Shown: positions 2,890 to 14,547, counted from the first letter of the stretch. The stretch is 64,000 nt of DNA from Candidatus Kaiserbacteria bacterium (GCA_016699245.1 CP064968.1:768317-832316), one strand, 5' to 3'. Made by a program: numbers and translations. Notes: generated from the letters alone by a model not told the origin.

Positions 2890-3125
2890 GTTTGATATAT
2901 TTTATTACAGCCTATTCCGAAATTAATGCTCGTTCTCTCATTTTTAACCCCCAAACAGGTTTATTAGTTACGTTGGTTCAGTATGTTTTTTGTAATTATC
3001 ACCACTGATTTGATAGAACTCCTTGGATTTTTCAATAACTCTACAAATTGTGTTCCGAATGGCTTACTTAAAACGAAAACAGCCTCCTATGGAAAACTTA
3101 TGTCTTCGCCCAGGAAGCTGGTGAG

Positions 3126-3512
3126 TTAATCCCATTCATCTGATGGGTAGTGGAATGTGACGTAATAGCCCAATATTACGATGAGGATGCCGGCCAAAAT
3201 AAACGCGATGTGAAGAAAATTTGCTTGATCAGTTATATTCCTTTCGATTACAAAAATCCTGCTGAAAATAAACGAAATTGTGGTACCTATAACTACCACA
3301 ACAATTCCAGCACACCTGTGATCAACTCCCAAATACGAGTACTCGGTTCGTTTCCATAGACCAATACAGAAGAACCATATACTTGCACATAAAAGAAGTG
3401 CGTCACCGACGAAGGGTGGTCGTATCGGATAGAAATAGATGGTGCTAATGCTCAAGAAAAAAAGCACAACACCCACATACGTTACTAACTTCTTTTCGAC
3501 ATAAATTTGCAT
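3126..3512 (-). CDS. Small polytopic membrane protein
   Basis: 128-aa strongly hydrophobic ORF. Confidence 0.35.
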   Translation of the reverse strand: MQIYVEKKLVTYVGVVLFFLSISTIYFYPIRPPFVGDALLLCASIWFFCIGLWKRTEYSYLGVDHRCAGIVVVVIGTTISFIFSRIFVIERNITDQANFLHIAFILAGILIVILGYYVTFHYPSDEWD

Positions 3513-3665
3513 GGATCACCCCTTTTGCAAAGAACACCCAATCCAAGTTGGGAATAGAGAAAAGATACCTCATAATTTGATTTTGTCAAAAAATGCATCC
3601 GGGTCTTCCATAGAACCTGTCCACCCCGCACATACGAAAAAACCCGTGAGGGCTTATTTCATATG

Positions 3666-3736
3666 TGCGGGATGGGGGAATCGAACTCCCGACCAGAGTT
3701 TGGAAAACTCTTATTTTACCACTAAACTAATCCCGC
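3666..3736 (-). tRNA. tRNA-Gly (anticodon TCC)
   Basis: Reverse complement folds as a cloverleaf: GCGGGAT..GTTT/AAAT D-stem, AGAGT-TTTCCAA-ACTCT anticodon arm, GGGAG-TTCGATT-CCCCC T-arm (one mismatch); CCA is not encoded. Confidence 0.7.
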
Positions 3737-3805
3737 AATCATTTTGTATGAATCTTTCACACAAAGACAAATAAGTATACTAAATGTTGCACATTGGGCA
3801 ACGCT

Positions 3806-4546
3806 CTAATTACTTATTTCGGATGATTCTAGCACTTCTTGCATATATGCGCCAATCTGGCGTGCGAGCATTACTCCAAATGCTTTATTCCCTCTCGAAT
3901 GGACAGTAACGTGTGCTGTTCCATACGGATGAATACCACTTCTTTTCCTATCTTTTCCGACCCTCTTGTCAATACATACTGATTGTAATTGTGTTCTGGA
4001 AAAACCCGTCTTTTTCAACCAAAACTCCTCAGATTCATGAATATTTGAGTCGGGGTATAGATGTATCCTAATGGTGAAGTTTGTATGATCCAATCCGAAA
4101 GATTCAAGCCAGCGTATATATAAATTAATTACTCGATAATCACTATTTACTAATCGAGTGATATCATGTGTCTTACTTCCCTCTCCGATATAGGTGCCGA
4201 GTCCAAGGAAAAACAAGTCACGAAATGAGATAATTCCTATATCCTTTTTCGCTCTCTCCCTTGCCTCTTCATATGTTTTTTTCTTTGCCAGCGATTTTGT
4301 AAGCAAAGAAGCAGATCGTGCTTTACCAATCGCTGCGATTGTTTTTTTATTCGGTGTGTAAGGGATACGTGAAAGATGGTATGAAAGCGTACTTACAGAA
4401 AGTCCTGTTTTCTTGGCAATATGGGTATATGAATAACCACGTTCTCGAAGTTTGATTGCTGTATCCTTAGCACTCATTACAATAATTGTATCACCTGTTA
4501 CCCATCTGGTCATTACCATTCGAGTTGATATACGAGTGTTATACAA
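3806..4546 (-). CDS. HTH-domain protein with a LAGLIDADG-like motif (paralog 1 of 3); 70 bp upstream of tRNA-Gly(TCC) and co-oriented with it
   Basis: N-terminal HTH (LRERGYSYTHIAKKTGLSVSTLSYHL); central motif FFLGLGTYIGEGSK resembling LAGLIDADG; homologous to the ORFs at 11157..11819 and 12316..12993. Confidence 0.6.
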   Translation of the reverse strand: MYNTRISTRMVMTRWVTGDTIIVMSAKDTAIKLRERGYSYTHIAKKTGLSVSTLSYHLSRIPYTPNKKTIAAIGKARSASLLTKSLAKKKTYEEARERAKKDIGIISFRDLFFLGLGTYIGEGSKTHDITRLVNSDYRVINLYIRWLESFGLDHTNFTIRIHLYPDSNIHESEEFWLKKTGFSRTQLQSVCIDKRVGKDRKRSGIHPYGTAHVTVHSRGNKAFGVMLARQIGAYMQEVLESSEISN

Positions 4547-4553
4547 TCAGTCA

Positions 4554-5702
4554 AATATGGTCGTGCTTACATTTCTTCAAAACATTGTCGTATCAGTGCT
4601 TGTAGGCTACCTCAGTATTACAAATACCCTCGCTGGGCATATTGAATCATTTTTTGAGTCTCCTCAAAGAGAGGAAGTTTTGGCGGAGGCAGAAACGACT
4701 CTCACAAAGGACGTCCTCACCGAAATTGCCCCTACCGGGGACTCATTTAGGGGAGCAATTCCAAAAATCCTTCTCGAACATGCCGAGTACCAGCGTGCTG
4801 CCGTCCTCGCGAGTAAACAAGACGAAAATATGCCCACATCTATTGGCGATGTACCTCTTGAGGAAGCAATAGAAAATGCACTTGTGAATATTTATTGTCA
4901 GTATAAAACTGATGAATACATTCGCACTACCACGGGTACTGGCTTTTTCATCAATCAAAAAGGAGTTATTCTGACCAATGCCCATGTAGCACAGTTTCTA
5001 CTTCTCAAAGAAATTAAGGGGGTTACTGACGATATTGAGTGTGTCATTCGTTCAGGGAATCCCGCCTCGCCAAAATACGTGGCAGAACTTTTATATATTT
5101 CACCCACCTGGGTATTTAAAAATTCTGAAGTGGTCGTGGATGAATCTCCGCGTGGTACGGGCGAGCGTGATTATGCACTTTTATATATAGCAAAAAGCAC
5201 TAACGGCACTCCCCTTCCCATCCGCTTCCCTACCCTTCCTATAGACACTACGCTTCTCTCACGAGAGACCGAAGGTCTCGAGGTATTCACTGCAGGATAT
5301 CCTGCAGAAGAACTCATGCGTCGGGGCGCAGATGCAGAACTGTATCCCGTCCTTGCTCCTACGCAAATTAATGCACTCTACACCTTCGGAAGTAACTATG
5401 CAGACCTCTTTTCAATCTCAGCATCTCCTGTAGGGGAGCATGGGGCCTCAGGTGGACCCATTGTGAATGTATGGAGTCAACGTGCGATTGGGCTTATCGT
5501 CACCAAAGGTGATATTGCTGAGGGAGAAAAAAGTCTTCGGGCACTTACCCTTTCCTACGTCGATCGTACCATCATAGAAGAAACGGGCTTTTCTCTCTCA
5601 CAAAACATGCAAGGAGATATTGCCTATCGTGGACTCATTTTTAACAAAGCAATGGCACCTTTTCTGTCAGATATTTTAATGGATGAATTGCAAGGAGAAT
5701 AA
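4554..5702 (+). CDS. Trypsin-like (S1 family) serine protease, membrane-anchored
   Basis: His motif TNAHV and Ser motif GASGGPI; N-terminal TM anchor; the ORF as given starts at 4452, but an internal Met at 4554 avoids overlap with the divergent gene. Confidence 0.7.
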   Translation, partial: NMVVLTFLQNIVVSVLVGYLSITNTLAGHIESFFESPQREEVLAEAETTLTKDVLTEIAPTGDSFRGAIPKILLEHAEYQRAAVLASKQDENMPTSIGDVPLEEAIENALVNIYCQYKTDEYIRTTTGTGFFINQKGVILTNAHVAQFLLLKEIKGVTDDIECVIRSGNPASPKYVAELLYISPTWVFKNSEVVVDESPRGTGERDYALLYIAKSTNGTPLPIRFPTLPIDTTLLSRETEGLEVFTAGYPAEELMRRGADAELYPVLAPTQINALYTFGSNYADLFSISASPVGEHGASGGPIVNVWSQRAIGLIVTKGDIAEGEKSLRALTLSYVDRTIIEETGFSLSQNMQGDIAYRGLIFNKAMAPFLSDILMDELQGE

Positions 5703-5750
5703 AACAAGCCCCGACACCACTGGTGTCGGGGCTTGTATATATCAAGTTTA

Positions 5751-7088
5751 TTATTCTACTTCAGGGAGTATTACTTCTGTTGAAGTGCTTGTTTCCTCGA
5801 CTGGATCTACAACCTCCCCTTCTACTGGTGGGAGTACCGGTACTTCTCCTGTTACTTCACTTGGCTTAGTGAGAGAATCAATATCAATCATAAGTGCGCT
5901 TGCTTCCTTAATTGCCACCTCAGCAGCAGAAATCTCCCCTGTCTCAAGAGCCACTGTTGTCTGAAGCATGAGTGTATCTATCTGTGTGAGTGCCTCGTTC
6001 ACTTTCTCTACAATTCCAGGCTCAGCAAGTGTGATGAGGCGTTCAGTGACTTGAATTTTTAAACCATTCAATACTTCGATTTCGCTCTTCACCATCTCAG
6101 TTCGTTCGATATCGCTAAGCATCACTGGTACGAGATCAGCAAGCGACACCGTTTCACGCACATCAATATCAGACATAAAAGCCACGAGTTTCTGCAGGAG
6201 CCCCAAGGTAGCAGCCAAATCGCCTGTAGCAGCCTCTGAATGATCGTCGTGCACCTGTTTCGCCTCTTCGGTCAAGCGATTGATATCACTCAAACGACGA
6301 TCGATATCGCTAATTTCTTCTTCGGTTGCTGATCTTTTGATTGTGATAAAGAGTTCAAAAGCACGTGTGGTTTCACGCTCTACCTGTGCCATTAGTCCTT
6401 CGTATGAAGCAGTGTTTTCTACCTGACTTTCTATTACACCTTCACGCGCATCATTCATCACCACCATAATAGATTCCACGAGAGAATCATCTTCGATTTC
6501 TGTATCTGCACCAAGCATTGCAGACTGGACCTCGAGTGACGCATTAAAAGAAATCTCTGCAATAGCAGCACCTTCAGCATCCTGCGTACGAAGTTCCACA
6601 AGTCCCGCTTGTACTGCAGTGGTGTGTTCCTTCACGGTATCGGTAATCTGTTGCTTCACTTCTTCGGTCAACTTACCTTCACTCGCAAGCACTCGCGCTT
6701 CGGTAATACGACGCTCCATGAGTTTGGTCTCGAATTCAATTTTTTCGTACGGTGAATTGGCAAGTTGTCCCTGCACTGTTTCATTCACTCCCGTCTTTAC
6801 CAAATACAACACATCACCAGGCATTGATTGCTCTGCAAAAAATGGTGCCGCGATAATAAAGAGAGCAAATATCCCGCCTGCTACACGCATATAGATTTTA
6901 TTAAAATGCACCACCATAAATGATTCCGAAGGAACACTCTGTGCAAGTGCTCGCATGTCGGTCATCTGCTTTGGAAGTGGATGGTACTCCATGTATGCAA
7001 AAATACGCTCACGAAGTTCGGTACGTTCCGACGCTTTCATGTGCGTTTTGTCTGTATATTTTTTTAGTTCTGTTTCAAATGATTTCAT
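5751..7088 (-). CDS. Anti-sigma factor-like protein (single TM, long acidic coiled-coil ectodomain)
   Basis: Start overlaps the sigma-gene stop (ATGA); short cytoplasmic N-terminus, one TM segment (GGIFALFIIAAPFF), long acidic extracytoplasmic region. Confidence 0.5.
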   Translation of the reverse strand: MKSFETELKKYTDKTHMKASERTELRERIFAYMEYHPLPKQMTDMRALAQSVPSESFMVVHFNKIYMRVAGGIFALFIIAAPFFAEQSMPGDVLYLVKTGVNETVQGQLANSPYEKIEFETKLMERRITEARVLASEGKLTEEVKQQITDTVKEHTTAVQAGLVELRTQDAEGAAIAEISFNASLEVQSAMLGADTEIEDDSLVESIMVVMNDAREGVIESQVENTASYEGLMAQVERETTRAFELFITIKRSATEEEISDIDRRLSDINRLTEEAKQVHDDHSEAATGDLAATLGLLQKLVAFMSDIDVRETVSLADLVPVMLSDIERTEMVKSEIEVLNGLKIQVTERLITLAEPGIVEKVNEALTQIDTLMLQTTVALETGEISAAEVAIKEASALMIDIDSLTKPSEVTGEVPVLPPVEGEVVDPVEETSTSTEVILPEVE

Positions 7089-7735
7089 GTTTTCTTTGTG
7101 CGGTTTTCGTGTGCTGCTGCTTCGCGTTCAGTAATCATATCCTTGAGTGTCTTCAATCCGCGATGTATACGTACCGAAACAACGTTTTCAGACTCTTCAA
7201 TAAGTTCGCTGATTTCTTTTGGTCCAAGTCCATCCACAAAACGAAGCGTGAGAACCTCTCGGTACACAAGGGGAAGTTCCTGGAGAAGTAAGCTTGCTTT
7301 CTGTGCATCGAGCGTAAAAGTAACCTCCGCAATACTTCCTCCCTGCAATTCTGGAAATGAGCCCTCATCAACCCCTTCCTCTGCGAGGATTGCATCAAGT
7401 GAAAGTTCCTTTCGTTTACGATACTCATCAATAATGAGGTTATTCATTACTTTGTACAGAAAAGGCTTGTATGAGTCTATCTCGTGACCCCCACGAATAT
7501 ATCCCCACACTTTTGTGAATGTATCATGCACGATTTCGATTGCTCGTTCTCGGTCTGAGAGTCGATATACTGCATGTCGGAATAGTGCATCTGCATATTC
7601 ATCAAATGCTTTCAAAAAACGATCCTCGTAGGACACTACGCTGGAATCCCTGACTGTTTTCCTTTTTGCCGGTTGTTTTGGCGCCATGTGGAAACCATTA
7701 TAAGCGAAGACGAGTGAAAAACCCACTTCTTTCAT
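7085..7735 (-). CDS. ECF-type RNA polymerase sigma-70 factor
   Basis: Sigma-70 region 2 (DTFTKVWGYI) and region 4 (REVLTLRFVDGLGPKEISELI) motifs. Confidence 0.8.
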   Translation of the reverse strand: MKEVGFSLVFAYNGFHMAPKQPAKRKTVRDSSVVSYEDRFLKAFDEYADALFRHAVYRLSDRERAIEIVHDTFTKVWGYIRGGHEIDSYKPFLYKVMNNLIIDEYRKRKELSLDAILAEEGVDEGSFPELQGGSIAEVTFTLDAQKASLLLQELPLVYREVLTLRFVDGLGPKEISELIEESENVVSVRIHRGLKTLKDMITEREAAAHENRTKKT

Positions 7736-7764
7736 AGAATTGCAATAAATAGCCTATTTCTTTA

Positions 7765-8688
7765 TTAAATCCAACGATTTGACTTGAAAAAGTATACCGT
7801 TCCAGAAACAGCAGTAACCACGAACGCTGCAACGTACAGAAAAGCATGTGGATTATCTTGAAATGGAAGTGGGATATTCATACCAAAAATCGAAGATATA
7901 AGGGTTGGAATTGTGAGTACAATCGTAAATGCAGTGAGACGGCGGATTGTAGCGTTAAGATTTTGGGTCAAAATAGACTCACTTGCACTTCGAATATTTT
8001 GAATAGTCTTTAAAATAGACTTTGCAGAGTCAATAAGCTGCGCAGTTTCAATAATAAGGTCTTCGAGTAACTCCCTATCCTCACTAAACATTTGGATATA
8101 GTTCCCTTTCGTGAGTTGTTGGAGCCATTCTTGAGTGGGTACGAGCGCAGACATTATTTCATTCAGTTCCTGTTCCAAAAATACCAAACGTTGAATGTCG
8201 CGACTGCGAATATCACGAATGCGTCCCATGTCGCGATACACCATTTTGCGCATGCGGGTCAACTTTTTTTCATAGGTAGCCTCAATTTCTGAGAGAAATT
8301 GAAGAAAAAGTGCTGTTTTTTGAACAGTTGAATAATCCCTCTTGCCTGCTATGAGTGGGTCAAGGAACGGCGTTTCCTGGTTTGCAATCGTAATAAGAAA
8401 CGTCTCGCCAAGAATTATGAGAATTGGCGCAGTTTCAATATCAATATCCTGCACATCAAAGGGGTAACGGGTGAAAAAATATGATATTGAGCCATCTTTT
8501 TCAAAACGTGGCACCTCAAAGACGTCCCGACTATCATCAATAATAGCCTCATCAAAACCATACTTTTCAATGAGTTCCTTAAGTTCTTCATCAGTAGGCT
8601 TCACTACATGTGTCCACACACCAGCTTTCGCCTCCAAAACGGTTTCGACTTCTGTGGAGTCACTTTGGCGAAAATAATGCGTTATCAT
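7765..8688 (-). CDS. corA: CorA-family Mg2+/Co2+ transporter
   Basis: C-terminal two-TM domain with the GMN motif (FGMNIPLPF). Confidence 0.8.
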   Translation of the reverse strand: MITHYFRQSDSTEVETVLEAKAGVWTHVVKPTDEELKELIEKYGFDEAIIDDSRDVFEVPRFEKDGSISYFFTRYPFDVQDIDIETAPILIILGETFLITIANQETPFLDPLIAGKRDYSTVQKTALFLQFLSEIEATYEKKLTRMRKMVYRDMGRIRDIRSRDIQRLVFLEQELNEIMSALVPTQEWLQQLTKGNYIQMFSEDRELLEDLIIETAQLIDSAKSILKTIQNIRSASESILTQNLNATIRRLTAFTIVLTIPTLISSIFGMNIPLPFQDNPHAFLYVAAFVVTAVSGTVYFFKSNRWI

Positions 8689-8863
8689 AATCTACAGTGT
8701 ATATCAGAAACGAAATAAACCTGCAATGTTTTGCTTTCATATTGTGTACAACCTCGCATTTTTTTGAAAGGAATGCTATTATCGGGGTCATGAAATCGGT
8801 ATGGTGCTGGTTTCGTGTTGAAAAAATTACTTTTCCAGTTCTTGTTCACAAAGGAGGTCTGCA

Positions 8864-9148
8864 ATGAAATTCCGCCAAGGAATTATTCGTACTCTTGTTA
8901 AGTCAGTGATTGACGATTTACTCTACAATGTTCGCCAACTTCCAGGAAAGATCAAGCGTCAACTCTGGAATAAACGCATACTTTTGTGGTGGTCTCGTCT
9001 CTGGATTCGCAAAGACGAGTTTCATTCATCGCTCAGTTTAGATACATCCGCGATGATAGAAATGACCAAAGACGAGTTAGCTGTGTATCTCAGAGACATC
9101 GTGAGAAGACGCAATATTGCACACAACAGAGACTTAGAGGGTTCTTAG
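8864..9148 (+). CDS. Hypothetical protein
   Basis: Strong RBS aaggagg upstream; terminator hairpin at 9154-9178. Confidence 0.45.
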   Translation: MKFRQGIIRTLVKSVIDDLLYNVRQLPGKIKRQLWNKRILLWWSRLWIRKDEFHSSLSLDTSAMIEMTKDELAVYLRDIVRRRNIAHNRDLEGS

Positions 9149-9153
9149 TCTCA

Positions 9154-9178
9154 GGGGAAGCTTGTCTTCCCCGCTTTT
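9154..9178 (+). terminator. Rho-independent terminator (ggggaagcttgtcttcccc plus T-run)
   Basis: Stem-loop followed by gctttt. Confidence 0.55.
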
Positions 9179-9212
9179 AAAGTAAAATCTAAAAGTTTTA
9201 CATCGGGGTGTA

Positions 9213-9364
9213 TCTTCGCCTAACGGCTCGATACATTCCCTCTTCGCTCGGAAATCAAAAAGTCTGTGCTTCGCACACATCCTCTCAGGAATGTTTTAAA
9301 ATCAAGCGAGCTTTATTTTAAAACATTCCTGAGAGGATGACCGACACTTTTTGATTCCTCTCGC
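9213..9364. repeat. 152-bp highly structured insertion, a nested palindrome, flanked by a 14-bp direct duplication (tacatcggggtgta) of the tRNA-Pro 5' end
   Basis: Direct repeats at 9199-9212 and 9365-9378; perfect 25-bp inverted repeats at 9278-9302 and 9315-9339; outer arms at 9250-9264 and 9343-9358. Confidence 0.55.
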
Positions 9365-9369
9365 TACAT

Positions 9370-9440
9370 CGGGGTGTAGCATAGTGGTAGTGTACTCGGT
9401 TTGGGACCGAGTGGTCCGGGTTCGATTCCCGGCTCCCCGA
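9370..9440 (+). tRNA. tRNA-Pro (anticodon TGG)
   Basis: C1:G72 acceptor end, which is characteristic of bacterial tRNA-Pro; CTCGG-TTTGGGA-CCGAG anticodon arm with G37; CCGGG-TTCGATT-CCCGG T-arm; one T-T mismatch in the acceptor stem; CCA is not encoded. Confidence 0.65.
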
Positions 9441-9829
9441 CAAATACTAAAATACCAGTCTTTTGACTGGTATTTTAGTATTCTGTCGCTAGGGAATCGA
9501 AGCTGATGCGAGAAATTTTTCGAGTGAAGCGAAGAAAAATATCCGCATCGGGTACTGAAACTGTAAGTTTCGATATTCCCGGCTCCCCGACAAAAAACGC
9601 AAAAGCCCTGATTTCTCAGGGCTTTTGCGTTTTTTGTCGGGGAGAGGAAGCAAACAATTTTGCTTCCGTCCGGAATCGAACGCCGGAACGATGTGAGTTT
9701 ACGAACGAGTGAGGCGTGTCCCGCGGCACTTAGCGAGTTTACGAGCTTAGTGACCGTCAGGACGATTCCCGGCTCCCCGACAAAATATACGAAAGGCCGC
9801 TAGTCACAACTAGCGGCCTTTCGTATATT
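9424..9829 (+). repeat. Three tandem copies of the tRNA-Pro 3' end (gattcccggctccccgacaaa), each followed by a different perfect terminator hairpin
   Basis: Copies at 9424-9444 (the real tRNA end), 9572-9595 and 9764-9785; hairpins at 9443-9482, 9592-9637 and 9784-9829. Confidence 0.6.
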
Positions 9830-9845
9830 CAATCACATATTAATC

Positions 9846-10334
9846 GTTCCACGTGGAACTATAATGCTTGTTTCATATGAAACAAGCATTATAGTTATTC
9901 GAAAATTACATTCTCTATGAAATTAATCTTCCCGTACTTTTCACGTGGAACTAGACGTATTGCTACAATATCAATTACGAAATCACCAAAATACTTTCTT
10001 TCATCAAGCCAGATGCTAATTGTGTTTTTTAACTTCTTTTGCTTATATGCATGCACATTCTCCTCAGGGCGCCATGTTTTATGTGAAACTGCTCTTTCTA
10101 GATCACTCATTGTTTCATATGAAACAGTCTTTACTTCAATAAAATGGACCTTGCCACTAGTTTCACGTGCAACAATGTCGATTTCACCGCATTTTTTATT
10201 ATAGTTTCTCTCAACAAGAGTAAGGCCTTTCCGCCTAAGCCAATTTGCAGCAATTTCCTCTCCCATTTCCCCAATTTCGTTGTGTTTAGCCATGTTTCAT
10301 ATGAAACTACATGTAAATTTGTTCCACGTGGAAC
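9846..10334. mobile_element. Cassette carrying yraN, bounded by compound palindromic terminal inverted repeats (GTTCCACGTGGAAC plus GTTTCATATGAAAC)
   Basis: Left end at 9846-9893 and right end at 10294-10334 carry the same two 14-bp palindromes in mirrored order; internal copies or variants occur at 9940, 10112 and 10159. Confidence 0.35.
9895..10293 (-). CDS. yraN: YraN-family (UPF0102) predicted endonuclease
   Basis: Motifs GEEIAANWLRRKG, GEIDIVARE and HFIEVKT, which are typical of YraN/UPF0102. Confidence 0.7.
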   Translation of the reverse strand: MAKHNEIGEMGEEIAANWLRRKGLTLVERNYNKKCGEIDIVARETSGKVHFIEVKTVSYETMSDLERAVSHKTWRPEENVHAYKQKKLKNTISIWLDERKYFGDFVIDIVAIRLVPREKYGKINFIENVIFE

Positions 10335-10931
10335 CATTTTAAGTAAATTGCTTAGAATTTGAGCAGAAACTATATTTAAAGCCGTTTTTTAAAGACATTG
10401 CTCTTTTATGTATTTGTCCTTTATACACATATCCACCTGCTTTTCCCCAGTTTTTGGATTTTTTGATTATTTTTGTCGATATGTCCTTTATATTGAAGAT
10501 AGTGTCTTTTATAATGTATTAGCCTAGTTTATCATCATAACTAAACTTAAGTCTTGCACACTGTGCACTATCTTCTACGATTTGGAAGTTTGTGGCCGGG
10601 GAGAATCGGTGTCCAATTCTAATTCGTTGACTCTGGTTTACTTATGATTTTCTAATTGTATCTTTGGTTCTATAATTTGGGGTCAAGTTTCTAAATTCAC
10701 TTCGTTCATTAAGAACTTCCTCCCCGAACTCGTCTGTTTTTGCATTATGAATAGTTTCGTCTCAAAATCTATTGTGAGTAAGATTTTGAGACAGACTCAG
10801 AAAATATAGTCGCTCCCGCTTCTTATTTTCTGGCCACATGACTCCGTTTCACACACAAGATCAAAAGCAAAGCAGTTTGCTTTCTAACGAAAAAACACCA
10901 TTTATTCAATGGTGTTTTTTCGTTTCTTGTG

Positions 10932-10956
10932 TGTGCGACCAGGGGTAATCGAAAAC
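10932..10956 (-). repeat. Partial duplicate of the 3' end of tRNA-Gly(GCC) (tgtgcgaccaggggtaatcgaaaac), with a terminator hairpin at 10896-10928
   Basis: 23/25 identity to 11078-11102; the same tRNA-end-plus-hairpin unit architecture as downstream of tRNA-Pro. Confidence 0.5.
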
Positions 10957-11079
10957 ATACTGTTTCAGTACACCTTTTGGCCTAATTCGCTCGTGTCCTC
11001 GCAATTTGGCTCAAAAGCTCTTTCGATTACCCATGCAAAATTAAAAAGACCAGGGGAAACCCTGATCTTTTTTAATTTG

Positions 11080-11150
11080 TGCGGCCAGGGGTAATCGAAA
11101 CCCCGACTAGTGCTTGGCAAGCACTCGTTATACCACTTAACCATGGCCGC
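11080..11150 (-). tRNA. tRNA-Gly (anticodon GCC)
   Basis: Clean cloverleaf: GCGGCCA acceptor, GTTA/TAAC D-stem, AGTGC-TTGCCAA-GCACT anticodon arm, GGGGT-TTCGATT-ACCCC T-arm; CCA is not encoded. Confidence 0.85.
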
Positions 11151-11156
11151 ATGTAA

Positions 11157-11819
11157 TCAATACTCTTTTTCAGCGAGTGTTACCCATTTGAGTAGTGTTC
11201 GCTTTAAAATTGTATTCCCGATTATAGTATTTCCTACTCCATCATGCAACGTCTGAATTGTATTTTGTTTTTCTAATACTTGATAGCGATGAAACTGAGT
11301 AATTGGAACACGAATTGAACGTGACCAGATGCGTGAAACTTTTTCTGGGGAGTGGGTAGGGTAGAGAAGGAGCCAAAATCGTATATTTTCCCGTGGAACG
11401 CCGAGATATTCTTGCATAAACGTAATAAAAATACGGTGAGCCGACTTTCGTGATGTGGAGATTCGTATCTGATTACTTAATGAGCAGTCACCAAGGGCTG
11501 CATAGAGCATTATCCCTGCAATAAAGGCAGGGAAGTGCTTGTAATGCTTGAAAGATATTGTTGCACTCCGTTCTGCTTCTGCATATTGTTTCTTGAGTTG
11601 GTTGCTGCGCGCTTTATTCAGTAATCCAATACGTTTGCCATTTTCCTTTGAGGTACGTTTCTTATTGTCATTGGTAACAGAAATTGACCATGTTTCATGT
11701 GAAAGCCAGATACTTACGGTACTTTTTGAGACACCCACAACATGCGCTATCTCGGTATAGGTAAAACCACGCTTACGCAATCTGCATGATTCTTCGTACT
11801 GAGCAGATTTACGTATCAC
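11157..11819 (-). CDS. HTH-domain protein with a LAGLIDADG-like motif (paralog 2 of 3); ends 6 bp upstream of tRNA-Gly(GCC)
   Basis: HTH (LRKRGFTYTEIAHVVGVSKSTVSIWL); motif FIAGIMLYAALGD; homologous to the ORFs at 3806..4546 and 12316..12993. Confidence 0.6.
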   Translation of the reverse strand: MIRKSAQYEESCRLRKRGFTYTEIAHVVGVSKSTVSIWLSHETWSISVTNDNKKRTSKENGKRIGLLNKARSNQLKKQYAEAERSATISFKHYKHFPAFIAGIMLYAALGDCSLSNQIRISTSRKSAHRIFITFMQEYLGVPRENIRFWLLLYPTHSPEKVSRIWSRSIRVPITQFHRYQVLEKQNTIQTLHDGVGNTIIGNTILKRTLLKWVTLAEKEY

Positions 11820-12180
11820 AGTATGAGTATAATATATACTTCGTCAATTGTTCGATTTGAGGTGTGTAGAAGCTGGGTTTTAGGTATACAGGTACTTAGT
11901 TGGACTCGTCCCGCTTTTTGACCAATTTTTCTTGAGACTGAACGGATTTAGAAAAATGTAAGGTGAATTGCGAAGCAAGAGAAGATACCCTGGGGTAGAA
12001 ATACTCTTGTGGTGCTAACTCACTACATTTTGTGGTCACGAGTTGCTAAGTGTAATCAAACACTTCGTGTTGATTACACTAAGCACTCTCGACCCCAGCT
12101 CGTGGTTTTTCTTCTTTGTGGAAGAAAAACATCACTCCGCCTTGCACAAAAGCCGAACGCAAAGCCTTTTGCGTTCTAAA

Positions 12181-12216
12181 CTAAAAGCCCATTTTCTTAA
12201 GAAAATGGGCTTTTAG
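12181..12216 (-). terminator. Perfect palindromic terminator hairpin directly downstream of tRNA-Arg
   Basis: ctaaaagcccattttcttaagaaaatgggcttttag; three more hairpins follow at 12040-12180. Confidence 0.55.
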
Positions 12217-12226
12217 TTTACTTTTG

Positions 12227-12299
12227 TGCACCCGGAGGGACTCGAACCCCCAACCCTTTGTTCCGAAGACAAATACTCTATCCGTTGAGCTACGGGTGC
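12227..12299 (-). tRNA. tRNA-Arg (anticodon TCG)
   Basis: Cloverleaf: GCACCCG acceptor, GCTC/GAGT D-stem, TTTGT-CTTCGGA-ACAAA anticodon arm, GGGGG-TTCGAGT-CCCTC T-arm; CCA is not encoded. Confidence 0.75.
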
Positions 12300-12315
12300 A
12301 GATTTTATGAGCATA

Positions 12316-12993
12316 CTATTCTTTGAGATAAGAATCAACCAACATTTTCTGCCAAAACTTCATTTTGAGTAGTAGTTCTTTACTCCTCCTGACCTCGATG
12401 CGAATACACCCCTTATATAGCGGGCGCTTTTTAATTCCGCGACCACCTGGCTTATAGATAGTTTTTTTGAACTGGTCTTTATGTATATTAAGTTTATTTT
12501 TCCACCACTCTTCACAATTTTCGTGTGCGTACAATTTATGTATGAAAAGACGAAAATGCAAATCAGAGTGTTTAATTTCAATAAATCTTTCTAACCACAA
12601 AATCATTACTTGAATCATGTCATCGTCTGAGTTTATAAAACTCCATTGATTGACACGTTTTGCTCCCTCAGCCCAATATAGAGAAATGCCACAATGAAAA
12701 AATGTATCGTGTTTGTATTGTTGAAACACTTTTTGTGCTTCTTCAAGAAAAACTTGTTCACGAGCAAGACGTCTTTTTCTTAATTCGCTTGCTGCGTTAA
12801 TTCGTCCCCGCGTTATGTTTGAATCTTTGCGATGTTTAAGCACCTTCCTTTCATCCTCAGTAAGTGGTAAGTCTTTGAGCCAAAGCGACAATGAACTCTT
12901 TGCAACATTAACTTCTTTTAAAATTTCATTATATGAGCAACCTTTTCTGCGAAGTTGTATAGCTCGATCTTTCTCTTGAACTAATGTTTTCAT
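12316..12993 (-). CDS. HTH-domain protein with a LAGLIDADG-like motif (paralog 3 of 3); ends 16 bp upstream of tRNA-Arg
   Basis: HTH (LRRKGCSYNEILKEVNVAKSSLSLWL); motif FFHCGISLYWAEGAKR; homologous to the ORFs at 3806..4546 and 11157..11819. Confidence 0.6.
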   Translation of the reverse strand: MKTLVQEKDRAIQLRRKGCSYNEILKEVNVAKSSLSLWLKDLPLTEDERKVLKHRKDSNITRGRINAASELRKRRLAREQVFLEEAQKVFQQYKHDTFFHCGISLYWAEGAKRVNQWSFINSDDDMIQVMILWLERFIEIKHSDLHFRLFIHKLYAHENCEEWWKNKLNIHKDQFKKTIYKPGGRGIKKRPLYKGCIRIEVRRSKELLLKMKFWQKMLVDSYLKE

Positions 12994-13074
12994 GTTTATA
13001 ACATTATATCATGGTTTGAATAACACACGGCGCAGTTGTGTACATTTCTATGTAAAACCAATACAATAGACACC

Positions 13075-14547
13075 ATGATAGTCCGCAGTGAAATACCAAA
13101 GGGAGTACAGCATGTGGCCGATATTCTCGAAAGCCATGGTTTTGAGGCGTATTTGGTGGGGGGATGCGTTCGCGATTTACTTATCGGAAAGCAACCAAAG
13201 GATTGGGATATCACCACTGATGCACATCCTAATGAAATAGAGAGTTTTTTCCCAAACACATACATCAACAATGATTTTGGTACCGTAGGAGTGGTAAACG
13301 AGGAGACTGAGGATCCGACGCTTAAAATAGTGGAGGTAACGCCATATCGTACCGAGTCTGAATATTCTGACGCACGCAGGCCAGACTCAGTAGAATTTGG
13401 GGTTTCTCTGACCGAGGACCTTAAACGACGCGATTTTACCGTAAATGCTATCGCATATCGCCTCAAAGATGAATCAATCGTTGACCTTTTTGGTGGGGAA
13501 GAGGATATCAAGCACAAGCGACTCCGTGCAGTAGGGAACCCTACCGAGCGCTTCAAAGAGGATGCACTGCGTATGATGCGTGCGGTGCGCCTTGCGGTGG
13601 AACTTGGTTTTGTGATTGAAAGTGAAACCATGTCTGCTATTACTGAAAATAGTACCAATTTAAGTCGTATTTCAAAGGAACGTATTCGCGATGAATTTTC
13701 ACGTATTCTTGAGTCAAAACAGCCAATGCAAGGGATTATTTTCCTCGAGAAATTGCAATTGCTTCAGTTTGTAGCCCCCGATCTTCTCAGGGGGATTGGG
13801 GTAGAACAAAATCAAGCACATGCTTTTGATGTATACGAGCACCTTTTGCGCACCATGCAACACGCTGCCGACAAGGATTGGGAGTTTGATATTCGCCTTG
13901 CAGGGCTCTTTCACGACATCTCCAAGCCAGAGACACGACGCTGGTCGGATGAGAAAAAGGATTGGACCTTCCATGGACATGAGGTAGTGGGTGCTAGAGT
14001 AGCGAAAAAGGCTTTGCAAGACCTTAAGTTTCCTCGTGAACGTATCGAAAGGATCGTCACACTCATCAGGTGGCATATGTTTTTCTCAGATCCAGCACAA
14101 ATCACTCTTTCTGCAGTACGCCGCACTATTGCGAATGTAGGGCAGGAGAATATATGGGACCTCCTCAAACTCCGCAGATGTGACCGAATTGGCACGGGAA
14201 GGCCAAAAGAACAGCCTTTCAGGCTCCGGAAGTACACTGCCATGGTGGAAGAAGCACTTCGTGACCCTATTTCAGTGAAGATGCTCAAGATTGATGGTTC
14301 CCGCATTATGGAACTTACGGGGGAGAAGCCGAGCAAGAAACTTGGTGACACACTAAATGCACTTCTTGAAGAAGTCCTCGACGAACCAGCAAAGAATACG
14401 ACTGAATACATGGAAAAACGTGCCCTTGAACTCATGCACATGACGGAAGCAGAGCTCGATGCCCTCGGAAAGAGTGGAAAGGAAAAGCGGGAACGAGAAG
14501 AAGCCGAAGCTGTTGCAGAATTACACAAAAAGCATAAGGTGGACTAG
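13075..14547 (+). CDS. cca: CCA-adding tRNA nucleotidyltransferase with an HD domain
   Basis: Pol-beta NTase motif LVGGCVRDLL..DWD; HD motif LFHDISKPE; the start is probably the internal Met at 13075 rather than 13036. Confidence 0.75.
   Translation: MIVRSEIPKGVQHVADILESHGFEAYLVGGCVRDLLIGKQPKDWDITTDAHPNEIESFFPNTYINNDFGTVGVVNEETEDPTLKIVEVTPYRTESEYSDARRPDSVEFGVSLTEDLKRRDFTVNAIAYRLKDESIVDLFGGEEDIKHKRLRAVGNPTERFKEDALRMMRAVRLAVELGFVIESETMSAITENSTNLSRISKERIRDEFSRILESKQPMQGIIFLEKLQLLQFVAPDLLRGIGVEQNQAHAFDVYEHLLRTMQHAADKDWEFDIRLAGLFHDISKPETRRWSDEKKDWTFHGHEVVGARVAKKALQDLKFPRERIERIVTLIRWHMFFSDPAQITLSAVRRTIANVGQENIWDLLKLRRCDRIGTGRPKEQPFRLRKYTAMVEEALRDPISVKMLKIDGSRIMELTGEKPSKKLGDTLNALLEEVLDEPAKNTTEYMEKRALELMHMTEAELDALGKSGKEKREREEAEAVAELHKKHKVD

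Follow-up and report, generated by a model that had tools for sequence, protein, structure and literature searches.

The 64-kb stretch of DNA analysed here (hereafter the window) comes from the genome of a Candidatus Kaiserbacteria bacterium, a member of the Patescibacteria or candidate phyla radiation (CPR), and carries three related genes, ORF1, ORF2 and ORF3 (ORF, open reading frame), each of which ends immediately upstream of a tRNA gene on the same strand. They belong to a large family which appears to be undescribed: full-text literature searches returned no description of the family or of this arrangement of gene and tRNA. The reading that we favour, and hold to be fairly probable, is that these are free-standing homing-endonuclease-like genes, each specific to one tRNA locus and inserted upstream of the promoter of that tRNA. 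It is based on the predicted fold of the proteins, a conserved motif, a one-to-one link between gene and tRNA species, the polymorphism of filled and empty sites, the existence of decayed copies, and an island of sequence divergence that includes the tRNA itself.

Three paralogous genes in the window

A first-pass annotation of the window had pointed to three genes of shared architecture, each preceding a tRNA gene. The three ORFs and the three tRNAs lie where it had placed them, all on the minus strand (Table 1), and the stop codons of ORF1, ORF2 and ORF3 are found 69, 6 and 16 nt before tRNA-Gly-TCC, tRNA-Gly-GCC and tRNA-Arg-TCG, respectively. Judging by their sequences, the three proteins are true paralogues, as had been claimed: the pairwise BLASTP E values are 6e-19, 1e-10 and 1e-16, with 25–27% identity over about 175 residues. 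No further member is found among the window ORFs of at least 100 residues (hmmsearch). The limits of ORF1 had to be revised: 3806–4546 is indeed the longest ORF, but the orthologues begin at the ATG at 4477, and the 223-residue product that starts there is 100% identical to an NCBI protein of 223 residues from Ca. Kaiserbacteria, so that ATG 4477 is almost certainly the true start. The whole window contains four tRNA genes (ARAGORN, each confirmed with Rfam), and between 3000 and 14000 Rfam finds tRNA models alone and no intron model.

Association with tRNA genes across the family

Relatives were gathered by scanning one genome per species of GTDB, which gave 400 relatives, from which 80 loci were kept; the family set consists of 99 ORFs in these 80 loci and the window, 94 of which could be scored for their downstream neighbour, the other 5 being cut by a contig end. 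A co-oriented tRNA gene is present at the 3' end of all 94 scorable ORFs. It starts between -81 and +94 nt from the stop codon, and in most cases between -15 and +25 nt. The tRNA-adjacent placement is therefore far beyond chance, as had been suspected from the three genes of the window. The nearest relative of each ORF shares the same tRNA in 94 of 94 cases, and in a neighbour-joining tree the Arg-TCG, Arg-TCT, Gln-TTG, Lys-CTT and Gly-TCC subfamilies are each monophyletic, the Gly-GCC subfamily being paraphyletic around Gly-TCC. Independent look-ups of ORF1 orthologues gave the same picture, with tRNA-Gly-TCC 5–75 nt downstream in 4 of 4. The homologues are thus always adjacent to a tRNA, of one species per subfamily, which is what a comparison with other genomes had been expected to decide.

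In many members of the Gln-TTG, Arg-TCT and Lys-CTT subfamilies the reading frame ends within the tRNA gene, with a TAG at tRNA positions 8–10, a TAA at positions 13–15, or a TAA contributed by the anticodon loop of tRNA-Lys-CTT (loci L034, L035, L039, L043, L047, L052, L054, L056, L060, L061, L075 and L082 are examples); in L075 the reading frame crosses the entire tRNA. If gene and tRNA share a transcript, its cutting by RNase P would leave an mRNA that has no stop codon.

The family is large and widespread. In a library of 1.84 billion representatives clustered at 50% identity, 6,111 clusters match at E <= 1e-3, a count which may include matches to the helix-turn-helix (HTH) alone, and 3,443 match at E <= 1e-10. 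The hosts are Patescibacteria and Actinomycetota, and the database labels of the members are "hypothetical", "HTH regulator" or "transposase". In one actinobacterial example, on a high-GC contig of 1.57 Mb, the gene is flanked by ksgA and tRNA-Gln, glmU-prs lies downstream, and the reading frame ends with a TAA inside the tRNA. The actinobacterial Gln-TTG proteins branch off deeply, as the sister clade of their CPR counterparts, and the GC content of their genes is host-like, that is, high, which rules out a recent transfer from CPR bacteria to Actinomycetota. A member also exists beside tRNA-Gln in the cultivated Minisyncoccus archaeiphilus (Gln-TTG, locus L053). A phage origin was considered and rejected, since tblastn gives no match in 50,697 GenBank phage records, and a single one was found in 2.9 million IMG/VR viral contigs.

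That single match (L081, a 73-kb contig) consists of a family gene followed by tRNA-Leu-CAG at 3001–3784, which points to a further subfamily; the same locus has tRNA-Met, tRNA-Leu-AAG and a tRNA with anticodon TAT. Some representative proteins (P0379, P0396, P0398, P0404 and P0411) are 400–576 residues long and match the family in two or three stretches; they may have arisen by fusion of tandem copies, or by read-through in the assembly of tandem doublets of the kind seen in the Gly-GCC subfamily.

Predicted fold and conserved motif

The AlphaFold2 model of ORF3 (predicted local distance difference test score, pLDDT, of 88) consists of a three-helix HTH, a helix of about 35 residues (58–92) and an alpha/beta domain. 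The last of these, modelled alone, reaches a pLDDT of 93 and a predicted template modelling score (pTM) of 0.85; its core is alpha-beta-beta-alpha-beta-beta-alpha, which is the LAGLIDADG fold. All predictions were made on monomers. The best structural match of the predicted model is WhiA, while no Pfam WhiA match is obtained for the three window proteins.

Sequence models have less to say. Pfam, NCBIfam, PHROGs and PADLOC give marginal HTH matches for the three proteins and one weak homing-endonuclease match, that of the PADLOC HEase model to ORF1 (E 0.006). The N-terminal HTH that had been proposed is therefore confirmed, but weakly, by Pfam matches to HTH_7 and HTH_23 near their thresholds. 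This domain is conserved throughout the family and resembles the HTHs of transposases and resolvases (HTH_23, HTH_7, HTH_SB, HTH_Tnp_1), and the matches to transposase models, in the three window proteins and in 96 members of the family, stay at the HTH level: no DDE, serine-recombinase or tyrosine-recombinase domain was found in them. When a profile of the 96 members was used, I-DmoI was the sole match outside HTH and other DNA-binding domains (E 0.005). The alignment sets the family motif LYWAEGxK...NSD...WL against the second motif of I-DmoI, LYVAEGDK...NKN...WL, and places E109 (ORF3 numbering) on the Glu of AEGDK. This Glu is one of the two catalytic acidic residues of I-DmoI.

Over the 99 family ORFs, residues G102, Y106, W107, E109, G110, K112, N121, D123 and W164 are 86–100% conserved. 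E-G-x-K and N-S-D reach at least 96% conservation in each of five subfamilies (Arg-TCG, Arg-TCT, Gln-TTG, Lys-CTT, Gly-TCC), K112 in Arg-TCT (9 of 11) being the exception. The LAGLIDADG-like motif that had been noticed in all three window proteins stands in two of them: ORF1 (YIGEGSK) and ORF3 (YWAEGAK) keep the acidic residue that ends the motif helix, together with the rest of E-G-x-K and N-S-D (E109-G110-x-K112 and N121-S122-D123 in ORF3). In ORF2, the corresponding sequence is YAALGDCS, where YAALG replaces YWAEG, and K112, N121 and D123 are also gone. From these residues, ORF1 and ORF3 look catalytically competent, whereas ORF2 seems to have decayed or been put to another use.

Filled and empty sites

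The first set of loci was chosen through the family protein and is blind to absences, which is why a second sample was drawn through a neighbouring gene. A gene for a CCA-adding enzyme stands beside the ORF3 orthologues in 27 of 30 loci, and this synteny holds at empty sites too. The gene lies outside the element and served as a marker for the flank of the orthologous site. The unbiased sample consists of 80 metagenome loci fetched with this marker, a choice independent of whether the family is present. A family gene was seen at 5 of 72 Arg-TCG sites, 15 of 45 Gly-GCC sites and 0 of 20 Pro-TGG sites. In 65 loci with an empty Arg-TCG site the tRNA is 31–242 nt from the CCA gene with nothing between, whereas the gap measures 773–784 nt in the 5 filled loci. 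Empty sites are thus common, and they include the closest relatives: L091 and L092, whose CCA enzymes are 88% identical to that of the window, have the tRNA 80–83 nt from the CCA gene. The larger gaps among the empty sites were searched for scars of a deleted ORF3; the matches were short (E >= 0.003) and none was convincing.

Several stages of decay are seen in the Gly-GCC subfamily, which includes intact genes, tandem doublets (L006, L021, L022, L114) and truncated copies (L009, L006). The E, K, N and D residues are lost in 4 of 12 copies next to the tRNA and in 3 of 3 upstream copies. An ORF of L114 (300–836) that seemed to be a family gene with no tRNA is actually the upstream copy of a tandem doublet running off the contig. 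Where dS, the rate of synonymous substitution, is not saturated, the ratio of nonsynonymous to synonymous rates (dN/dS) is 0.07–0.26, a sign of constraint on the coding sequence.

Promoter layout at the tRNA junction

The last codons of ORF3 run into the predicted promoter of tRNA-Arg, which is of the sigma-70 type: the -35 element TTGATT (12338–12333) lies within them, the 17-nt spacer holds the TAG stop codon, and the -10 element TATGCT (12315–12310) ends 10 nt before the first nucleotide of the tRNA. A comparable layout (TTGAxx, 16–17 nt, TAnnCT, 9–18 nt before the tRNA) was picked by our own scan in 13 of 29 Arg-TCG junctions, and it can be recognised by eye in L001, L003 and L009 as well. 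In the GC-rich actinobacterial loci, read by eye, a TAnnnT hexamer precedes tRNA-Gln by 10–11 nt in most cases.

The comparison of filled (window, L007, L114) with empty sites (L091, L092) shows the tRNA promoter at a similar position in both; at filled sites, a gene of about 700 bp, with its own promoter, sits between the tRNA promoter and the divergent promoter of the CCA-adding enzyme. Neither terminal repeats nor target-site duplications were seen at the boundaries of these filled and empty sites. Since the tRNA promoter is retained, the tRNA should stay expressed, and the insertion would be tolerated.

An extended -10 element, TGATATAAT, lies 9 nt before the ATG of ORF3 and is kept in orthologous loci, which suggests that the mRNA is nearly leaderless. 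The putative -10 of ORF1 ends 7 nt before ATG 4477, so that a leaderless mRNA is expected there too. Terminator-like hairpins are found 3' of each of the three tRNAs linked to a family gene in the window.

An island of divergence that includes the tRNA

When the window is compared with L007 at the DNA level, the CCA gene and the intergenic region are 78–90% identical, the body of ORF3 43–67% and the tRNA 57–67%, after which identity rises to 70–82% past the tRNA. The divergence is thus local, and the tRNA shares it. Over the loci L001–L030 and L091–L170 and the window, tRNA-Arg-TCG exists in two sharply distinct forms, type A with the D-arm AGCTCAACGGATAGAGT and type B with the D-arm GTGAAGAGGATATCAT, whose occurrence does not correlate with how far the adjacent CCA enzyme has diverged (rho 0.09). 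In the unbiased set type A occurs at 4 of 5 filled and at 5 of 55 empty sites (Fisher p = 0.0012), and in the pooled sets the filled sites comprise 18 A and 14 B, the empty ones 5 A and 50 B; shared ancestry is uncontrolled in both comparisons. Strict co-inheritance of ORF3 and tRNA type was considered and abandoned, the effect being weak after control for CCA similarity (coefficient 0.02, permutation p ~0.001). In one pair, L003 and L004, ORF3 (77% identical) is better conserved than the CCA enzyme (60%).

Proposed mechanism and alternative explanations

The mechanism that we propose would operate as follows. The gene, with its own promoter and a leaderless mRNA, would sit just upstream of the tRNA promoter, its last codons overrunning this promoter or, in other subfamilies, the tRNA itself. 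The protein would dimerise through the LAGLIDADG helix and recognise the cognate tRNA locus, the only sequence that is conserved across hosts; the HTH would probably assist in this recognition, possibly as an anchor. Alleles that lack the gene would be cut, and repair from the filled allele would copy the gene, often with the linked tRNA allele, into the empty site. Copies would then decay over time and be lost.

Several observations weigh against this scheme. No Pfam LAGLIDADG_1, _2 or _3 model matches the three window proteins at E <= 10, and no LAGLIDADG model is among the 25 most-hit Pfam families for the 96 members scanned, so that the nuclease fold suggested at first is backed by structure prediction and by the acidic residue kept in ORF1 and ORF3, but not by Pfam. 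The ORF3 orthologues largely track the divergence of the CCA enzyme (Spearman 0.60). The deep split of the Gln-TTG proteins between Patescibacteria and Actinomycetota, together with the host-like GC content, speaks for a long history of vertical inheritance, and is as compatible with loss as with gain. Copies deprived of the motif, such as ORF2 and its counterpart in L007, stay intact as ORFs, which hints at a function that does not involve catalysis. Last, no conserved sequence beyond the tRNA and its promoter was found at the insertion point of the empty sites, which leaves unexplained how the filled allele escapes cutting. A palindrome, CATTGCAATG, at the -35 of the tRNA of L091 looked like a candidate target, but most empty sites lack it: of 57, 8 contain TTGCAA and 4 contain ATTGCAAT. 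Even so, the predicted fold, the tRNA linkage and the empty sites support the selfish, homing-endonuclease-like gene that had been imagined from the window, and we judge this reading on balance to be likely.

The most substantial alternative, which we nevertheless regard as unlikely, is that the protein is a domesticated, non-cutting DNA-binding regulator akin to WhiA, which binds near the cognate tRNA gene or promoter and tunes the transcription of the tRNA or its own. WhiA being the best structural match, the conservation of the HTH in the whole family, the physical overlap of the ORF with the tRNA promoter, the deep and mostly vertical clades under purifying selection and the persistence of intact ORFs that have lost the acidic residue all fit this proposal. 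It is harder to reconcile with the fact that most close relatives have an intact tRNA and promoter but no such gene (5 of 72 Arg-TCG sites filled), and with the near-invariance of E-G-x-K and N-S-D in five subfamilies, which is unlike WhiA; it also leaves the truncated and tandem copies, and the divergence island that extends over the tRNA, unexplained. Homing and regulation could both be true, in different lineages. A tRNA-linked regulator or processing factor had been put forward for the three genes from the start; as a derived or additional role it is possible, but, with the gene missing from close relatives, it is unlikely that this role is essential.

The same absence bears on the idea that the protein is a maturase-like RNA-binding cofactor, translated from the tRNA precursor transcript, which helps to fold, process or protect the cognate tRNA. 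Some LAGLIDADG proteins are RNA maturases, the stop codons that abut or enter the tRNA imply a shared transcript, each subfamily is specific to one tRNA, and ORF3 adjoins the gene of a CCA-adding enzyme. However, the tRNAs are ordinary, intron-free molecules of 72–74 nt, the N-terminal domain is an HTH of the DNA-binding type, the synteny with the CCA gene is seen at empty sites as well, and most relatives have the same tRNA and not the protein. An essential tRNA cofactor was rejected as unlikely for this last reason, and we hold any cofactor of this kind to be very improbable. We give equally little credit to the notion that the genes are part of another tRNA-targeting mobile element, for example an insertion sequence or transposase, or encode an accessory protein of an integrase. 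The resemblance of the HTH to those of transposases and resolvases, the name "transposase" carried by relatives in some databases and the duplications of tRNA 3' ends nearby are what recommends it, but the protein has no recombinase domain of the DDE, serine or tyrosine type, and neither repeats at the termini nor duplicated target sites were seen at the boundaries of filled and empty sites. The unit comprises one gene only, phage and viral collections contain next to no members of the family, and the duplicated tRNA ends are found 3' of other tRNAs.

A stronger form of the homing-endonuclease reading, which we put forward tentatively and think rather improbable, is that the endonuclease and the adjacent tRNA allele spread as one unit, as a gene drive acting on tRNA genes: type B would be cut, and the gene would be installed along with a resistant type A. 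If this were true, the family would have been reshaping tRNA sequences and the architecture of tRNA loci for a very long time in Patescibacteria and in streamlined Actinomycetota, and some lineages may have become domesticated tRNA-specific regulators.

Comparison with known systems

Active homodimeric LAGLIDADG endonucleases with a single domain have been described in rRNA introns of CPR bacteria (PMC11270868), and group I introns are found in the tRNAs of Patescibacteria (PMC13011429). With I-CreI, I-CeuI, I-ShaI and I-DmoI the family shares the core fold, as predicted here, and a motif helix with an acidic residue at its end and a Gly after it; there is also sequence similarity to the second motif of I-DmoI, E and K included. 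A fixed site with filled and empty alleles, decayed copies and CPR hosts are further points in common with LAGLIDADG homing endonucleases. The differences are as clear. The family is free-standing, whereas these enzymes reside in a group I intron or an intein; it occupies the 5' flank of chromosomal tRNA genes, they the interior of an rRNA or protein gene; it adds an N-terminal HTH and a 35-residue helical linker, carries a further helix between strands three and four, and lacks a Pfam LAGLIDADG match.

In WhiA two LAGLIDADG domains precede an HTH at the C terminus; in the family a single domain follows an N-terminal HTH. The LAGLIDADG domains of WhiA are devoid of the catalytic acidic residues, whereas the family keeps E-G-x-K, and WhiA is a conserved core gene, unlike the family genes, which are present or absent among close relatives.

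The nuclease domain of enzymes of the I-TevI type is tethered by a long linker to an HTH; these enzymes have a GIY-YIG fold and reside in introns. The family likewise combines a nuclease-like domain, a long linker and an HTH, and by analogy it may bind at one place and cut at a distance, although the catalytic fold, the order of the domains, which is opposite, and the intron residence of I-TevI set the two apart. SegB of phage T4 is a free-standing homing endonuclease encoded in a tRNA gene cluster (PMC2330249). The position of its gene among tRNA genes is reminiscent of the family, and so is the inheritance of a tRNA region linked to the endonuclease gene, to be compared with the type A tRNA at filled sites. 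SegB is a phage enzyme of the GIY-YIG type, whereas the family has a predicted LAGLIDADG fold, is cellular, is divided into tRNA-specific subfamilies and overlaps the tRNA promoter.

With these data, a large family that had no name gains a fold, a defining context and a function that can be tested, in culture in the case of the Minisyncoccus archaeiphilus member. If our reading is true, the 5' flank of individual chromosomal tRNA genes is a new niche for homing endonucleases, whose genes are woven into the tRNA promoter or the tRNA. It may also account for oddities of tRNA loci, such as the two forms of tRNA-Arg-TCG which are independent of the neighbouring housekeeping gene, or the CPR tRNA clusters broken up by insertions of the family. 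The many diverged proteins that combine LAGLIDADG and HTH domains, presumably with long and distinct DNA targets, are a possible source of nucleases.

Other features of the window

Table 1. Features of the family loci and their surroundings in the 64-kb window
Feature	Position	Strand	Description and evidence
ORF1	3806..4477	-	223 aa, Gly-TCC subfamily; HTH, helical linker and predicted LAGLIDADG-fold domain
ORF2	11157..11819	-	220 aa, Gly-GCC subfamily; architecture as ORF1 and ORF3, motif degenerate
ORF3	12316..12993	-	225 aa, Arg-TCG subfamily; HTH about 1-55, long helix 58-92, predicted LAGLIDADG-fold domain 93-225
tRNA-Gly(TCC)	3665..3736	-	ARAGORN; Rfam tRNA model, 64.9 bits
tRNA-Pro(TGG)	9370..9441	+	ARAGORN, Rfam
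tRNA-Gly(GCC)	11079..11150	-	ARAGORN, Rfam
tRNA-Arg(TCG)	12226..12299	-	type A D-arm; ARAGORN, Rfam
Putative ORF1 promoter	4485..4513	-	ATGACC-17-TACAAT, TG before -10; consensus match only
Putative promoter between ORF1 stop and tRNA-Gly-TCC	3774..3801	-	TTGCCC-16-TATACT; consensus match only
Terminator-like hairpin 3' of tRNA-Gly-TCC	3640..3655	-	scan
Putative promoter directly 5' of ORF2	11820..11847	-	TTGACG-16-CATACT; consensus scan, geometry to GTG start uncertain
Terminator-like hairpin 3' of tRNA-Gly-GCC	11043..11072	-	scan
Predicted ORF3 extended -10 promoter	13003..13011	-	TGATATAAT, 9 nt before ATG; sequence and 23 orthologue upstream regions
Predicted tRNA-Arg promoter in ORF3 3' end	12310..12338	-	sequence; layout recurs in Arg-TCG junctions
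Two adjacent hairpins 3' of tRNA-Arg	12155..12220	.	20-bp stem 12177-12220; terminator-like 12155-12176
tRNA nucleotidyltransferase gene (CCA-adding / poly(A) polymerase family)	13075..14547	+	divergent; Pfam PolyA_pol, HD, tRNA_NucTran2_2

The perfect hairpin with the 20-bp stem gives weak Rfam matches on both strands, below the gathering threshold, which are probably meaningless.

The 3' end of tRNA-Pro-TGG (ATTCCCGGCTCCCCGACA..., 9425–9458) recurs at 9575–9608 and 9765–9798, with spacings of 150 and 190 nt, and that of tRNA-Gly-GCC has one repeat 146 nt downstream (10920–10954 and 11066–11100, 83% identity over 35 nt). The first-pass annotation had taken such duplications and the arrays of terminator hairpins as compatible with repeated insertion events. 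We did not retain this idea: the duplications and hairpin arrays are on the 3' side of the tRNAs (tRNA-Pro and tRNA-Gly-GCC) while the genes are on the 5' side, and no link to the genes was found. The repeats resemble att (attachment) site remnants of elements that integrate at the 3' end of tRNA genes, or reiterated terminator modules.

Short palindromic repeats are also present at 9846–10337, around a UPF0102/YraN-like gene (9895–10293). Four 17-mers resembling GTTCCACGTGGAAC lie in and around this gene, and three to five 17–32-mers resembling TGTTTCATATGAAACA were seen, one of which is inside ORF2, at 11688–11704.

Last, in the distant relatives L027, L029 and L030 tRNA-Arg-TCG, Gly-GCC, Pro-TGG and Gly-TCC form a compact cluster within 1.4–2.9 kb. 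In the window these four tRNAs extend over 8.6 kb (3665–12299), with tRNA-Pro-TGG inverted and other genes between them.

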